From the IMG/VR virus record IMGVR_UViG_2660238548_000012: a stretch of 6,485 nucleotides of DNA; one strand, given 5' to 3'. Below, one piece after another: positions 1 to 6,485 of the stretch. Every line of letters begins with the position of its first letter. The stretch's first letter is position 1. Source of the DNA: a virus (Duplodnaviria > Heunggongvirae > Uroviricota > Caudoviricetes). The translations under genes were made by a program, and so were the position numbers. The notes beneath the pieces were generated by a model, which was not told the DNA's origin, searched no databases, and saw nothing but the letters and a program-made list of their open reading frames with translations.

Positions 1-269
1 GGCTTAAGGAAGCCGGATTACTGGCATCAACAGGGAGTACTGGCGACTCGTATGACAACGCGATGGCTGAGAGCATCAATGGTCTTTACAAAGCGGAGGT
101 AATACACCGTAAGAGCTGGAAAAACCGGACAGAAGTGGAACTGGCCACACTAACGTGGGTGGACTGGTATAACAATCGACGATTGCTGGAAAGGCTGGGC
201 CATATTCCTCCGGCAGAAGCAGAAAAAGCTTATTATGCTTCCATCGGAAATAATGATCTGGCAGCCTGA
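1..269 (+). CDS. IS3-family transposase OrfB, C-terminal part (5' partial)
   Basis: Frame open from window start (codons from position 3); translation ...GSTGDSYDNAMAESINGLYKAEVIHRKSWKNRTEVELATLTWVDWYNNRRLLERLGHIPPAEAEKAYY... contains the conserved DDE-region D-x-YDNA-x-ES and YNxxR motifs of IS3-family transposases; stop at 267-269. Confidence 0.85.
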   Translation, partial: LKEAGLLASTGSTGDSYDNAMAESINGLYKAEVIHRKSWKNRTEVELATLTWVDWYNNRRLLERLGHIPPAEAEKAYYASIGNNDLAA

Positions 270-311
270 GTTCACAGATAAAATACTCTCCAGGAAACCC
301 GGGGCGGTTCA
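1..311 (+). mobile_element. Right end of an IS3-family insertion sequence (IS629/IS1203/IS3411-like), truncated by the window edge
   Basis: Transposase reading frame runs into the window and ends at 269. Terminal sequence ending ...CCCGGGGCGGTTCA at 311 (reverse complement TGAACCGCCCCGGGTTTCC...) is a typical IS3-family TG...CA inverted-repeat end. The P reading frame diverges from lambda P exactly at this junction. Specific IS name is from memory. Confidence 0.8.
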
Positions 312-982
312 GCTTTGATTTCTGCGATCTTCGCCAGAGCCTGTGCACGATTTAGAGGTCTACCGCCCATGACAGGAAGTTGTTTTACTGGTTCAGGTAT
401 AGCCTCACCACGGTTAATTCGTGCGGTCATACAGGACAGTTCATCGGCAGCCTTGCGCCGTAATTCCGCATCAGTAAGCGCATTGGCCCGCATGTTCTGA
501 TACAGGTTGGTAACCAGCCAGTAGTGCGCGTTTGATTTCCACGGATAAGACTCCGCATCCGGATACAGGCCTCGCTTCCGGAAATACTCGTAAACCATAT
601 CAACCAGCTCGCTGACGTTTGGCAGTCCGGCGATAACGGATGCTTCTTCCCGGCACCATGCAACAAACTGCCCGGGTGATGGCAGAAATGGTCGATTCTG
701 CCGACGGGCTACGCGCATTCCTGCGTTAACCTGTTCCATTGTGGTGATCCCGTTTTCCCGGAAAGCCAGAACCCACTGGCGGCGGATTTCGTTCAGTTCG
801 TTCTGGTCACGGTTAGCCAGGCTCGCCGGGAAAGTTGCCAGTAACTGGCTGAACACACCGTTGATGATCTGCGCTACCTGCTGTACCTGAGGCTTTTCGT
901 CGTACTGTTCCGGCATGTTGTTGGCGATCCGACGCATCTGCTCACGGTCAAAGTTAACCATCTGTGCGGCGATGTTTTTCAT
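272..982 (-). CDS. P: Lambda-type replication protein P (DnaB helicase loader), C-terminus replaced by IS-derived codons
   Basis: 236-aa ORF; about the first 224 residues (MKNIAAQMVNFDREQMRRIANNMPEQYDEKPQVQQ...AKIAEIKA) match lambda P as recalled. The last 12 residues (EPPRVSWRVFYL) and the stop are encoded within the IS terminal repeat (272..311). ATG at 982 overlaps the O stop (ATGA). Confidence 0.88.
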   Translation of the reverse strand: MKNIAAQMVNFDREQMRRIANNMPEQYDEKPQVQQVAQIINGVFSQLLATFPASLANRDQNELNEIRRQWVLAFRENGITTMEQVNAGMRVARRQNRPFLPSPGQFVAWCREEASVIAGLPNVSELVDMVYEYFRKRGLYPDAESYPWKSNAHYWLVTNLYQNMRANALTDAELRRKAADELSCMTARINRGEAIPEPVKQLPVMGGRPLNRAQALAKIAEIKAEPPRVSWRVFYL

Positions 983-1878
983 AAATCCACCCCGTAAATC
1001 CAGTCTGTGTTTGTCAGGTCGAGTTTTGGTTTGCTGGCTGTCACGACTGCCTGTTGCTTGTTACGGTTGATTTCGAGCTGGGTCCACTTGTCGCGGAGTT
1101 TGGCCGGGCTCAGCACATTACCGGACCAGAAGTTGTCCTGGCAGGCCCAGCGGAACAGCACACACATATCGCGGTGGTTACGTCCGTCACGTTCACGCAT
1201 CAGGCGGATATCGTTAGCCCACCCTGCAAAATTCGGTTTTCTGGCTGATGGCGCGATAGTCTTCACCATGTCAAACATCCACTCTGCGGCGGTCAGGTCT
1301 TCTGCTGTCCCCCATTTGCTGCCGCTCTGAATTGCAGCATCAGGTTTCACCACAGAAAGGTCGTTTTCTGGCTGGTCAGAGGATTCGCCAGAATTCTCTG
1401 ACGAATAATCTTTTCTATTTTCTTTTGTATTAGTGTCTTTTGTGTTCCCCTGTTTTGAGGGATAGCAATCCCCCAATTTGAGGGATGTTTTATCCCTCGT
1501 TTTAGGGGATTTTCCCTCGTTTTGAGGGATACACCATTCTGAGATGTTTTTATTTGGTCCAAACATGCCGCCTTGCTGCTTGATAATATTCATTCTGACG
1601 AGTTCTAACTTGGCTTCATTGCACCGTTTGACAGGTAACTTTGTAATCTCGCTAAGTTGAGAATCGGTGATTCTGTCCATTGGTTTATTCCACCCATAGG
1701 TTTTACGCAGAATGGCAAGCAGCACTTTAAACTGTCGCTTGGTCAGATCTGCGCCTGAATAAGCCTCAAGCAGCATATTTGATAGTCTGGCGTAACCATC
1801 ATCGAGATCTGCCACATTACGCTCCTGTCCGGCAAAGTTACCTCTGCCGAAGTTGAGTATTTTTGCTGTATTTGTCAT
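979..1878 (-). CDS. O: Lambda-type replication initiator protein O
   Basis: 299-aa ORF (MTNTAKILNFGRGNFAGQERNVADLDDGYARLSNMLLEAY...DWIYGVDL) recognisable as lambda O; contains the iteron array internally; stop overlaps the P start. Confidence 0.95.
   Translation of the reverse strand: MTNTAKILNFGRGNFAGQERNVADLDDGYARLSNMLLEAYSGADLTKRQFKVLLAILRKTYGWNKPMDRITDSQLSEITKLPVKRCNEAKLELVRMNIIKQQGGMFGPNKNISEWCIPQNEGKSPKTRDKTSLKLGDCYPSKQGNTKDTNTKENRKDYSSENSGESSDQPENDLSVVKPDAAIQSGSKWGTAEDLTAAEWMFDMVKTIAPSARKPNFAGWANDIRLMRERDGRNHRDMCVLFRWACQDNFWSGNVLSPAKLRDKWTQLEINRNKQQAVVTASKPKLDLTNTDWIYGVDL
1400..1531. repeat. ori-lambda: four ~19-bp iterons (O-binding sites) plus adjacent AT-rich unwinding region, inside the O gene
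   Basis: Four tandem repeats of the form TCCCTC-N-GAGGGA at about 1447..1531 (cccctgttttgagggata / atcccccaatttgagggatg / atccctcgttttaggggatt / ttccctcgttttgagggata); AT-rich tract ttttctattttcttttgtattagtgtcttttgt at about 1400..1446. Confidence 0.9.
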
Positions 1879-1888
1879 AATGACTCCT

Positions 1889-1966
1889 GTTGATAGTTCC
1901 AGTAATAACCTCAGAATTCCATCTGGATTTGTTCAGAACGCTCGGTTGCCGCCGGGCGTTTTTTAT
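1889..1966 (+). ncRNA. oop: oop antisense RNA (antisense to the cII 3' end) with its intrinsic terminator
   Basis: gttgatagttccagtaataacctcagaattccatctggatttgttcagaacgctcggttgccgccgggcgttttttatt is nearly identical to lambda oop RNA as recalled; GC-rich stem followed by a T6 run at 1941..1966; opposite strand to cII. Confidence 0.8.
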
Positions 1967-2204
1967 TGGTGAGAATCGAAGCAACTTGTCGTGCCAATCG
2001 AGCCATGTCGTCGTCGACGACACCCCATTCAAGAACAGCAAGCAGCATTGAGAACTTTGGAATCCAATCCCTCTTCCACCTGCTGATCTGCGACTTATCA
2101 ACTCCCACAGCTTCCGCTGTCTTCTCAGTTCCAAGCATTGCGATTTTGTTAAGCAACGCACTCTCGATTCGTAGAGCCTCGTTGCGTTTGTTTGCACGAA
2201 CCAT
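1911..2204 (-). CDS. cII: Transcriptional activator cII (lysogeny establishment)
   Basis: 97-aa protein MVRANKRNEALRIESALLNKIAMLGTEKTAEAVGVDKSQISRWKRDWIPKFSMLLAVLEWGVVDDDMARLARQVASILTNKKRPAATERSEQIQMEF, starting at the ATG at 2204. The 117-aa ORF in the track is an upstream in-frame extension. Confidence 0.95.
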   Translation of the reverse strand: MVRANKRNEALRIESALLNKIAMLGTEKTAEAVGVDKSQISRWKRDWIPKFSMLLAVLEWGVVDDDMARLARQVASILTNKKRPAATERSEQIQMEF

Positions 2205-2221
2205 ATGTAAGTATTTCCTTA
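2182..2221 (+). promoter_or_regulatory. PRE promoter with CII recognition repeats TTGC-N6-TTGC
   Basis: TTGCgtttgtTTGC at 2182..2195 on the strand antisense to cro/cII, followed by an AAGTAT -10-like hexamer around 2209..2214; matches the lambda PRE architecture overlapping the cII start. Confidence 0.7.
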
Positions 2222-2283
2222 GATAACAATTGATTGAATGTATGCAAATAAATGCATACACCATAGGTGTGGTTTATTTTGAT

Positions 2284-2315
2284 GCCCTTTTTCAGGGCTG
2301 GGATGTGTAAGAGCG
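2284..2315 (-). promoter_or_regulatory. nutR site (boxB hairpin 2284..2298, boxA 2308..2315) in the cro-cII intercistronic region
   Basis: Minus-strand reading gives boxA CGCTCTTA followed by boxB GCCCTGAAAAAGGGC (plus strand shows gccctttttcagggc and taagagcg); canonical lambda nutR. Confidence 0.85.
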
Positions 2316-2323
2316 GGAATGTC

Positions 2324-3676
<1,353 letters not shown>

Positions 3677-3726
3677 TCCCCACCTCAATCTCGATAACAA
3701 AAAAACAAACTATTTTCCGTTTAAAA

Positions 3727-3806
3727 ACAATGGAGTTTGTTTTTCACGCCCCTTTTTACAATATTTCTTGTTTACAACATACAATCTTCCTTGTAATTTT
3801 AAGCCA
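3727..3806 (+). promoter_or_regulatory. Left operator of 434 type (OL3 3727..3740, OL2 3758..3771, OL1 3781..3794) with PL promoter (-35 tttaca 3771..3776, -10 about 3794..3799, start near 3806)
   Basis: Three ACAA-N6-TTGT sites: acaatggagtttgt, acaatatttcttgt, acaatcttccttgt. Downstream transcript start region atcagcaggacgcactgacc matches the lambda PL leader. Confidence 0.85.
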
Positions 3807-3839
3807 TCAGCAGGACGCACTGACCACCATTGAAGGTGA

Positions 3840-3870
3840 GGCTCTTAAAAATTAAGCCCTGAAGAAGGGC
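3840..3870 (+). promoter_or_regulatory. nutL site (boxA-like GGCTCTTA 3840..3847; boxB GCCCTGAAGAAGGGC 3856..3870)
   Basis: boxB hairpin is identical to lambda nutL boxB; boxA has G in place of the usual first C. Confidence 0.85.
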
Positions 3871-4027
3871 AGCATTCAAAGCAGAAGGCTTTGGTGTGTG
3901 TGATACGAAACGAAGCATTGGCCGGAAGTGCGAATCCGGATTAGCTGCCAATGTGCCATTGCGGGGTGTTTTCGTTCAGGACTACGACTCCCACACACAA
4001 CCAAAGCTAACTGACAGGAGAATCCAG

Positions 4028-4351
4028 ATGGATGCACAAACACGCCGCCGCGAACGTCGCGCAGAGAAACAGGCTCAATGGAAAGCAGCAAATCCCCTGT
4101 TGGTTGGGGTAAGCGCTAAACCAGTTAACCGCCCTATTCTCTCGCTGAATCGCAAACCGAAATCACGAGTAGAAAGCGCACTGAATCCGATAGACCTTAC
4201 GGTGCTGGCTGAATACCACGAACAGATTGAAAGCAACCTGCAACGTATTGAGCGCAAGAATCATCGAGTTTGGTATAGCAAGCCAGGTGAGTTCGGTATA
4301 ACTTGTCAAGGAAGACAAAAGGTTAAAGGGGAATCCATTCCATTGGCATGA
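4028..4351 (+). CDS. N: Antitermination protein N
   Basis: 107-aa protein MDAQTRRRERRAEKQAQWKAANPLLVGVSAKPVNRPILSLNRKPKSRVESALNPIDLTVLAEYHEQIESNLQRIERKNHRVWYSKPGEFGITCQGRQKVKGESIPLA; arginine-rich boxB-binding N-terminus. The 151-aa track ORF is an upstream extension over the leader. Confidence 0.95.
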   Translation: MDAQTRRRERRAEKQAQWKAANPLLVGVSAKPVNRPILSLNRKPKSRVESALNPIDLTVLAEYHEQIESNLQRIERKNHRVWYSKPGEFGITCQGRQKVKGESIPLA

Positions 4352-4359
4352 GGTACGTA

Positions 4360-5229
4360 ATGAAGAAGATTGATTACAAGTCCATACCAAAACCAATAGA
4401 CTCAGCATCAGAGCGAAAAAAACACAAAAAAGAGGCTGAAAAATTAGCAAATTATATCAGTTTTATTAGAAACAATGCTCACGGCGATGGCGACAAGAAG
4501 TTGCTTTCAGATGCTCGGACCCAAGCGTTCGGTATACTTCGTAAGCAGATGCAATATCGTCTTCATCCTGGCTACATAATTGAAATTCGCCCTACTGAAA
4601 GACAATTGTTCTTATTAAACTCTGTCTTTGACTTTGTAAACGTAGTTGGAGATCTTATCGACAGGTCTGTAGATAAGGATCCTGATACAAATAGTTTTCT
4701 TCTAACAAATAAAGAATACTTATATGGTAAATTCGGTATAAACGGATGGCAAAAATATGTACGCTTCTTACGTGCATTCGTTGATGCGTATAAAAATTCC
4801 GACATGATTTATACATATTTGCCTGGTGGTGATAATTGTACGCTTTCGGCAGACAATAGAATATTCATACCTGTACTTGGTCTTGGGCTGATTAATGCAG
4901 TAAATGAAAAAGATGTTATAATTGTTAAGCAGTGGCGAAAATATGAGGGATATAGATATCTGCCATGCTTTGATATATTAAAAATACAGAATAAATTCTA
5001 TGTAAAAATTAAATATAAAGAAGATATTTTCTTCCTCAGAAAAAACATAGATCTTTTACAAGAACTTTCTGGTACAATAGATGTCATCTTAGGTTCTAGG
5101 TTTATAAAAGAACTGAAAGAAAGCAGGTCTTTCTCTCGTGTAGAGATAAGCGAGTCAGAGTTATGGGGTATATCAAATAATCCTGTAAACCACGCTCACC
5201 AACGAAACCCAAACAAAAAGTGGTCATAA
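4360..5229 (+). CDS. Hypothetical protein (289 aa), AT-rich cargo gene in the N-proximal slot where lambda carries sieB/ral; function unknown, candidate exclusion/defence protein
   Basis: Long uninterrupted ORF with GAGG Shine-Dalgarno 6 nt upstream of the ATG at 4360 (alternative in-frame ATG at 4348 overlaps the N stop). Strongly AT-rich with Lys/Ile/Asn/Tyr-rich composition, unlike the flanking lambda-like genes. No transmembrane segment and no motif I can assign. Confidence 0.7.
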   Translation: MKKIDYKSIPKPIDSASERKKHKKEAEKLANYISFIRNNAHGDGDKKLLSDARTQAFGILRKQMQYRLHPGYIIEIRPTERQLFLLNSVFDFVNVVGDLIDRSVDKDPDTNSFLLTNKEYLYGKFGINGWQKYVRFLRAFVDAYKNSDMIYTYLPGGDNCTLSADNRIFIPVLGLGLINAVNEKDVIIVKQWRKYEGYRYLPCFDILKIQNKFYVKIKYKEDIFFLRKNIDLLQELSGTIDVILGSRFIKELKESRSFSRVEISESELWGISNNPVNHAHQRNPNKKWS

Positions 5230-5278
5230 CCCGCTCAGGCGGATTTCATTTTCACGCAAACAACAGAATAAACACAGC

Positions 5279-5311
5279 GCTGTGTATTCATTCCAACGAG
5301 TGAATACACGG
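5279..5311 (+). other. Near-perfect inverted repeat / RNA hairpin (about 13-bp stem, 4-nt loop) with no following T-tract
   Basis: ctgtgtattcattc-caac-gagtgaatacacg: arms 5280..5293 and 5298..5310 are complementary apart from one G-U position. Confidence 0.5.
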
Positions 5312-5371
5312 AGCAATGTCGCTCGTAACTAAACAGGAGCCGACTTGTTCTGATTATTGGAAATCTTCTTT

Positions 5372-5397
5372 GCCCTCCAAGATGAGGGCGATTTTTT
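5372..5397 (+). terminator. Rho-independent terminator candidate between the cargo gene and ea10
   Basis: GC stem gccctc / gagggc (5372..5377 and 5384..5389) with loop caagat, followed by gattttttat. Confidence 0.6.
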
Positions 5398-5417
5398 ATC
5401 TGTGAGGATATGAACAG

Positions 5418-5786
5418 ATGTCAAACATCAAAAAATACATCATTGATTACGACTGGAAAGCATCAATAGAAATTGAAATCGACCATGACGTAATGACAGA
5501 GGAAAAACTTCACCAGATTAATAATTTCTGGTCAGACTCTGAATACCGACTCAATAAACACGGCTCTGTATTAAATGCTGTATTAATCATGCTGGCGCAA
5601 CATGCTCTGCTTATAGCAATTTCAAGCGACTTAAATGCATATGGTGTTGTGTGTGAGTTCGACTGGAATGATGGAAATGGTCAGGAAGGATGGCCTCCAA
5701 TGGATGGTAGTGAAGGAATAAGAATTACCGATATCGATACATCAGGAATATTTGATTCAGATGATATGACTATCAAGGCCGCCTGA
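5418..5786 (+). CDS. ea10: Ea10-like early protein (lambda ea10, annotated as 'ssb' in some lambda records)
   Basis: 122-aa ORF with GAGGA Shine-Dalgarno; same length as lambda Ea10, and the 73-bp gap from its stop to the cIII start matches my recollection of lambda coordinates. Assignment rests on position and size, not on a recognised motif. Confidence 0.65.
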   Translation: MSNIKKYIIDYDWKASIEIEIDHDVMTEEKLHQINNFWSDSEYRLNKHGSVLNAVLIMLAQHALLIAISSDLNAYGVVCEFDWNDGNGQEGWPPMDGSEGIRITDIDTSGIFDSDDMTIKAA

Positions 5787-5858
5787 GCGCGGCGTTACCG
5801 CATACCAATTACGCTTCACTCGAGGCGTTTTTCGTTATGTATAAATAAGGAGCACACC

Positions 5859-6023
5859 ATGCAATATGCCATTGCAGGGTGGCCTGTTGCTGGCTGCCCT
5901 TCCGAATCTTTACTTGAACGAATCACCCGTAAATTACGTGACGGATGGAAACGCCTTATCGACATACTTAATCAGCCAGGAGTCCCAAAAAATGGATCAA
6001 ACAATTATGGCTATCCAGACTAA
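5859..6023 (+). CDS. cIII: cIII (inhibitor of FtsH-mediated degradation of CII)
   Basis: 54-aa protein [54 protein letters not shown] matches lambda CIII including the amphipathic helix region; strong AAGGAG Shine-Dalgarno 6 nt upstream. Not listed in the ORF track, where the overlapping 89-aa frame masks it. Confidence 0.92.
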   Translation: MQYAIAGWPVAGCPSESLLERITRKLRDGWKRLIDILNQPGVPKNGSNNYGYPD

Positions 6024-6135
6024 ATTCACTATCGCCACTTTTATTGGCGATGAAAAGATGTTTCGTGAGGCCGTCGACGCTTATAAAAAATGGATATTAA
6101 TACTGAAACTGAGATCAAGCAAAAGCATTCACTAA
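5992..6135 (+). CDS. kil: Kil (host cell-division inhibitor)
   Basis: 47-aa protein [47 protein letters not shown] with AGGAG Shine-Dalgarno; overlaps cIII by 32 nt and gam by 46 nt, as in lambda. Corresponds to the C-terminal part of the 89-aa track ORF. Confidence 0.88.
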
Positions 6136-6485
6136 CCCCCTTTCCTGTTTTCCTAATCAGCCCGGCATTTCGCGGGCGATATTTTCACAGCTATTTCAGG
6201 AGTTCGGCCATGAACGCTTATTACATTCAGGATCGTCTTGAGGCTCAGAGCTGGGCGCGTCACTACCAGCAGATAGCCCGTGAAGAGAAAGAGGCAGAAC
6301 TGGCAGACGACATGGAAAAAGGCCTGCCCCAGCACCTGTTTGAATCGCTATGCATCGGTCATTTGCAACGCCACGGGGCCAGCAAAAAAGCCATTACCCG
6401 TGCGTTTGATGACGATGTTGAGTTTCAGGAGCGCATGGCAGAACACATCCGGTACATGGTTGAAACCATTGCTCACCATCAGGTT
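6090..6485 (+). CDS. gam: Gam (RecBCD inhibitor), 3' partial; long form starts at 6090, GamS start at 6210
   Basis: Open frame to the window end; [100 protein letters not shown]... matches lambda Gam; AGGAG Shine-Dalgarno before the internal ATG at 6210. Confidence 0.9.

Follow-up and report, generated by a model that had tools for sequence, protein, structure and literature searches.

IS629/IS1203-type insertion at the 3' end of replication gene P in a phage 434-type prophage of Escherichia coli and its likely effect on DnaB loading

Insertions of IS629 in lambdoid prophages of E. coli, gene P included, are already documented, especially in STEC. IS1203 is treated as an isoform of IS629, an element that duplicates 3-4 bp of its target and of which 62% of the O157:H7 copies are found within prophages (PMC3271280). 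Stx2a phages are described as differing from one another mainly in where IS629 sits, and phages with the element can still be induced (PMC4587872; PMC10810198). The prophage analysed here carries the same element in the same type of host, and it differs in that the P reading frame runs into the end of the IS, which yields a near-full-length fusion instead of a grossly truncated P. Phage 434 and the wild 434-type prophages at the lambda attachment region, its closest relatives, are without an IS in P.

The partner of P, the helicase DnaB, has been described in contact with the region concerned. In the 2.66 Å cryo-EM structure of the B6P5 complex (DnaB6-P5), P domain IV (residues 193-233) forms a C-terminal 'lasso', the helix of which (211-227) packs on the DH and LH helices of two DnaB subunits; DnaB Trp294 touches P Ala215, Lys218 and Ile219, Met301 touches Ile222 and Phe226, and Leu305 touches Phe226 (PMC12661323). 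The P tail is ordered up to residue 232/233 in the models, the segment 131-141 also touches DnaB, and the lasso has been proposed as the first P element to bind (PMC12661323). In addition, P Lys229 cross-links to DnaB Lys373 (PMC6391071). Among lambda P mutants with an altered DnaB interaction, the pi mutants (R137Q among them) and the Delta-76 deletion lower DnaB sequestration or P lethality (PMC3640518). The lesions of the P protein described below map to DnaB-contact segments, namely 131-141 and the C-terminal lasso (PMC12661323). The pi mutants, however, came from laboratory selection and are viable point mutants, whereas the present allele is a tail swap generated by an IS.

We analysed a stretch of 6,485 nucleotides (hereafter the window), which is the entire 6485-bp draft contig JZDU01000014.1 of assembly GCA_000965545.1. 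Over positions 1-311 (+) it agrees at 311/311 bases with the right-hand terminus of an IS3-family element, 1310 bp long and of the IS629/IS1203 type, which bears out the original prediction of an IS3-family element in the 3' end of P. The start of the contig falls within the IS and the terminus of the element is base 311 (Table 1). An identical element is found in thousands of E. coli records. In one complete 1310-bp copy (L010 602-1911), which interrupts ycgR in strain 2017C-4109, the last 311 bases equal window 1-311; this copy has TG...CA ends, is flanked by a 3-bp GAT duplication, starts with TGAACCGCCCCGG and finishes with CCGGGGCGGTTCA, and TGAACCGCCCCGG is found at both ends. When the two ends of this copy were aligned with each other, 13/13 terminal bases matched, as did 22 of the first 25. 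The 88-residue transposase fragment of the window aligns to positions 296-369 of 369 of the NCBIfam model transpos_IS3 with 76.9 bits, a score below the whole-protein cut-off of 160 bits only because the query is a fragment. Full copies sharing this right end carry a programmed frameshift and an AL1L pseudoknot in their annotation, and RefSeq names them 'IS3 family' or 'IS3-like element IS1203 family' transposase with programmed frameshift.

Table 1 Features at the left end of the window, with positions counted from its first letter.
Feature	Position	Strand	Evidence and remarks
Transposase OrfB, C-terminal 88 residues, end of the integrase core	3..269	+	rve_3 1.8e-12, rve_2 1.4e-7 (Pfam); stop TGA 267-269
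Right terminal inverted repeat	287..311	+	End ...CCGGGGCGGTTCA, GGTTCA 306-311, terminal CA 310-311
Fused P reading frame, 236 aa	272..982	-	Phage_lambda_P (PF06992), E 7.7e-61, 205 bits (Pfam)
GCT, target bases adjoining the IS	312..314		Candidate copy of the 3-bp target-site duplication; partner beyond the contig
Cys134Phe, single-base difference in P	582..582	-	Only mismatch to the UTAK-6 prophage
Replication gene O, intact, with ori iterons (about 1446-1530)	979..1878	-	Phage_rep_O 5.6e-36 (Pfam); phage 434 annotation transferred (L011, offset +11)

The junction with P could be read to the base. Window 982..311 matches the P gene of phage 434 at P nucleotides 1-672, where the match ends, and the insertion point lies between base 2 and base 3 of P codon 224, with the transposase genes directed towards P. 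Base 311 is the terminal base of the IS and also agrees with the base that native P has at this position. The native 434 gene ends AAA GCT AAG TTT GGG CTG AAA GGA GCA AGT GTA TGA, and the window gene ends AAA GC/T GAA CCG CCC CGG GTT TCC TGG AGA GTA TTT TAT CTG TGA, the slash marking the junction. Codons 1-224 are thus native (window 982-311), while codons 225-236 and the stop come from the IS end (310-272, with the stop TGA at 274-272). In place of KFGLKGASV, the nine native residues 225-233, the protein ends in 12 residues read from the IS (EPPRVSWRVFYL), so that the earlier count of about nine residues lost and 12 IS codons gained, with the terminus at 311, proved exact in the codon comparison with 434 P. 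Residues 1-224 of the fused protein are identical to an allele known with the native tail. P lies directly downstream of O and overlaps it, the O stop and the P start sharing 979-982.

Outside the IS, the window is closely related to known phage DNA. Positions 312-6485 gave a single 6174-base alignment with Escherichia phage 434 (OL657226.1) at 100.0%, with 3 mismatches (582, 3767 and 5048), and 1 mismatch (582) in the same 6174 bases with the UTAK-6 prophage, which stands uninterrupted beside ybhC in a complete genome. Four contigs (L014-L017) are free of mismatches to window 311-6485 (0 in 6175 bases) and run on through the native P tail, ren, ninB, dam, ninE, ninF, ninG, a phosphatase, lpxR, ylcG and Q. 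They are the exact empty-site haplotype of the window prophage, so that the insertion is a recent event, probably a single one, on a known phage background. The bases at 3767, inside the annotated oL2 operator, and at 5048 are common to UTAK-6 and the four contigs, so that at both it is laboratory phage 434 that deviates. In the UTAK-6 prophage, otherwise identical and uninterrupted, the exo gene is annotated as frameshifted (L012 15983-16664).

The gene order of the window is gam-kil-cIII-ea10-like-Nun-tail protein-N-hex-cI-cro-cII-O-P, and the imm434 cI, cro and operators, the early-left genes and the replication genes are collinear with phage 434. No mismatch to the uninterrupted haplotype occurs in the immunity and early-left genes, which are intact, in agreement with the expectation that the immunity module had been retained. 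Two reading frames of this region deserve mention. An AT-rich frame at 4348-5229 (+), of 293 aa (or 289 aa), overlaps the end of N and matches PHROG 12139 (unknown function) over its full length; the final 20 residues (...NPVNHAHQRNPNKKWS) correspond to the C-terminal end of Nun-like termination factors, Pfam and PADLOC gave no hit, and the phage 434 record calls it a 'Nun C-terminal peptide-containing protein'. A 134-aa frame at 3272-3676 (+) overlaps the end of cI, has a hydrophobic N-terminus, matches PHROG 2651 and occupies the position of rex in lambda; in the phage 434 record it is Hex, 'repressor protection protein'. A reading of the neighbouring cargo frames as defence genes was rejected, with 0 PADLOC hits.

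The explanation that we consider likely is that a full-length 1310-bp IS629/IS1203 element inserted into P of a 434-type prophage and weakened DnaB loading. The element would have transposed into P within codon 224 as a simple insertion with a 3-bp GCT duplication. The resulting protein would keep domains I-III and the lasso residues 211-224 and would lose the end of the helix, Lys225, Phe226 and Gly227, where Glu-Pro-Pro stands instead, as well as Lys229. Each P protomer would then grip the DnaB DH/LH junction less, and DnaB loading at ori would be reduced or abolished; host killing through sequestration of DnaB by P would be expected to drop too.

Several observations bear on this prediction. 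The fused P does not have a complete C-terminal lasso, residues 225-233 being replaced and the contact Phe226 lost. The motif [KR][FHYL][GH][LMF] is found in 113 of 114 homologues, a set made of P-family proteins with an AEI[RK] anchor and with identity down to about 63%, and is absent only from the fused allele; Gly227 and Leu228 are conserved at 90% or more in 18 homologues of 63-80% identity. AlphaFold2 models of the fused P keep helix 212-224 and all other helices, the pLDDT of residues 221-230 going from 74 to 55 in the fused P, with 33 for the new tail. The original prediction had implicated the P C-terminus in the DnaB interaction, and the lost tail does lie at that interface (Phe226, PMC12661323; Lys229 cross-link, PMC6391071). 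As the tail lies at the DnaB interface and the motif is kept in 113/114 homologues, impaired helicase loading is therefore plausible, and we predict as reasonably likely that loading by the fused P is weakened or lost. It is reasonable to suppose that the prophage may be defective.

The insertion may instead be nearly neutral, the last nine P residues being dispensable, DnaB still loaded, the prophage inducible and viable and the IS a passenger; we hold this to be unlikely. Most of the named lasso contacts stay in the fused P (Ala215, Lys218, Ile219 and Ile222), together with all domain III contacts; of the 17 lasso-helix residues 14 are kept, and of the 5 named contact residues 4 (PMC12661323). 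A 66-residue tag (SPA) after residue 233 is tolerated and leaves P active (PMC3640518), the last five P residues are variable among homologues, and Leu in place of Phe226 is frequent in nature (P0003, at least 1000 contigs). Stx phages with 1-3 IS629 copies have been obtained as induced phage DNA (PMC4587872), and the same P::IS segment is present in a second immunity/O background, described below, which could mean that there is no strong counter-selection. Against near-neutrality, K-[FHYL]-G-L is kept in all but one of the 114 homologues, Phe226 contacts DnaB directly, the change at the helix end is from Lys-Phe-Gly to Glu-Pro-Pro, and the fused allele is rare, with 11 contigs, all E. coli, whereas the common intact one is on at least 1000. 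In the lambda P literature cited here, we found no published test of a P without residues 225-233.

The genes that follow P in lambda are not on the contig, and the original prediction had them displaced or absent. Short-read assemblers break at multi-copy repeats, which is why the contig ends in the IS. Two sister contigs (L005 and L006), 100% identical to the window across 6.3-6.4 kb, end at window 143 and 69, elsewhere within the IS; the contig end is therefore an effect of assembly and not a truncation of the IS or of the prophage. The apparent absence of ren, nin and Q is an assembly limit, and of the two options displacement, by about 1.3 kb, is favoured through a scaffold with the same fused P (L004, LM997205.1; 4 mismatches in 1890 bases). 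After the fused P, this scaffold has 456 IS bases, a single N and then ren from codon 62 to codon 96 and its stop, followed by tR2, ninB, ninG, phosphatase, Q, holin, lysozyme and Rz in canonical order. On the opposite strand of its nin region (L004 4053-5825, minus strand of the locus), a 590-aa reading frame without a Pfam hit could be a moron or a defence gene.

In complete genomes, IS copies of this kind are located at the start of ren (DLI.6n), in P about 100 nt from its 3' end (O157:H7 strain 8368) and, in C7, both behind ren and within ninB, and the duplications at the four insertions of the P-ren region are AAT, TTG, GGT and GTAA. Since the comparable IS copies are all simple insertions with duplications, and given the right arm of the L004 scaffold, a simple insertion with a GCT duplication is rated the most likely case in the window, and probable. 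In the favoured simple insertion, ren, nin and Q would stand about 1.3 kb further off, on another contig, and would be reached from pR only through N-antiterminated transcription across the IS, in antisense, over 1.3 kb. By the 434 annotation both N and nutR are intact, and a consensus scan of the relevant strand of the IS found 2 weak terminator-like hairpins against 1.3 ± 1.0 in shuffled sequences, i.e. no excess. Polarity on ren, nin and Q is possible, and absolute polarity is not predicted.

The IS might alternatively mark the boundary of a deletion or rearrangement, in which IS-mediated deletion, or recombination between IS copies, took away or relocated the P end, ren and perhaps further parts of the right arm, leaving the prophage truncated at this point. 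The left IS junction is seen on no contig: exact-pattern scans of the genome (species-representative genomes), metagenome and viral contig collections found neither the predicted left junction, with a 3- or 4-bp duplication, nor the right one. The post-gap sequence of L004 begins in mid-ren and not at a remnant of P, and IS629 copies are many, with as many as 49 IS places per genome in the IS629-bearing genomes considered. A joint between the IS and mid-ren should, however, leave some IS bases on the piece after the N, and this piece starts without any; the break is therefore more likely to reflect a short P-ren repeat common to another lambdoid prophage, which would explain it better than an IS/ren deletion joint. 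The canonical order of the 3' part of ren, nin, Q and the lysis genes in L004, and the simple nature of 4/4 comparable insertions, also argue against a deletion, which we regard as quite improbable.

Besides the tail, the window P carries a second difference. Residue 134 is Cys in phage 434 and in the UTAK-6 prophage and Phe in the window; Cys134 is invariant across 18 diverse P homologues, and the residue sits three residues from the pi site R137Q (PMC3640518). Combined with the native tail, C134 is the common form (at least 1000 contigs) and F134 a rare one, found on the four contigs of the empty-site haplotype, and a protein look-up found no IS-fused C134 allele on record. Decay after inactivation by the IS was considered as an origin of Cys134Phe and ruled out by these four contigs of the same prophage: F134 occurs there with an intact tail, and Cys134Phe therefore predates the IS.

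The fused allele is present in two prophage backgrounds. In the second (L008), compared over window 69-1968, P and the IS part (69-983) are identical to the window, and O and cII show 47 differences, none of them below window 984. This prophage is a mosaic, in which O and cII are about 2.5% diverged from the O/P border onward, with another cI and a DUF1828 neighbour. We favour a single insertion followed by homologous recombination at the O/P border. An independent insertion at a hot spot of the very same base is not favoured, as the other IS629 insertions in the P-ren region occupy different sites. The fused P with Cys134Phe could conceivably be a selected, attenuated pi-like loader, with less killing by DnaB sequestration and enough loading for mobility, the two backgrounds then reflecting spread by recombination under selection; this we consider very improbable. 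That the P/IS junction is an assembly chimera of an IS read and a P read, as a short draft contig ending in a repeat might suggest, is practically refuted by the identical junction in five independent assemblies from different projects, one of which reaches 456 bases into the IS.

Other 434-type prophages carry such elements at other places. In the complete genomes of O103:H2 and O121 (L013 7369-8582), an IS629-type copy lies between kil and gam of a 434-type prophage, and in the F134 sister lineage two contigs (L014 and L015, 1-60) begin with 60 bases of an IS right end, near a small reading frame beside xis. No complete E. coli genome of the collection has this junction at the codon 224/225 site. 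Element, phage, target gene and kind of event were thus known before, and what the complete-genome collection lacks is the exact site alone.

The availability of the exact uninterrupted parent haplotype is of modest practical value, and the case illustrates a hazard of reading, as a contig that ends in an IS tells nothing of what follows. Taken alone of little weight, the insertion adds one further case of IS629-type elements eroding or diversifying lambdoid prophages.
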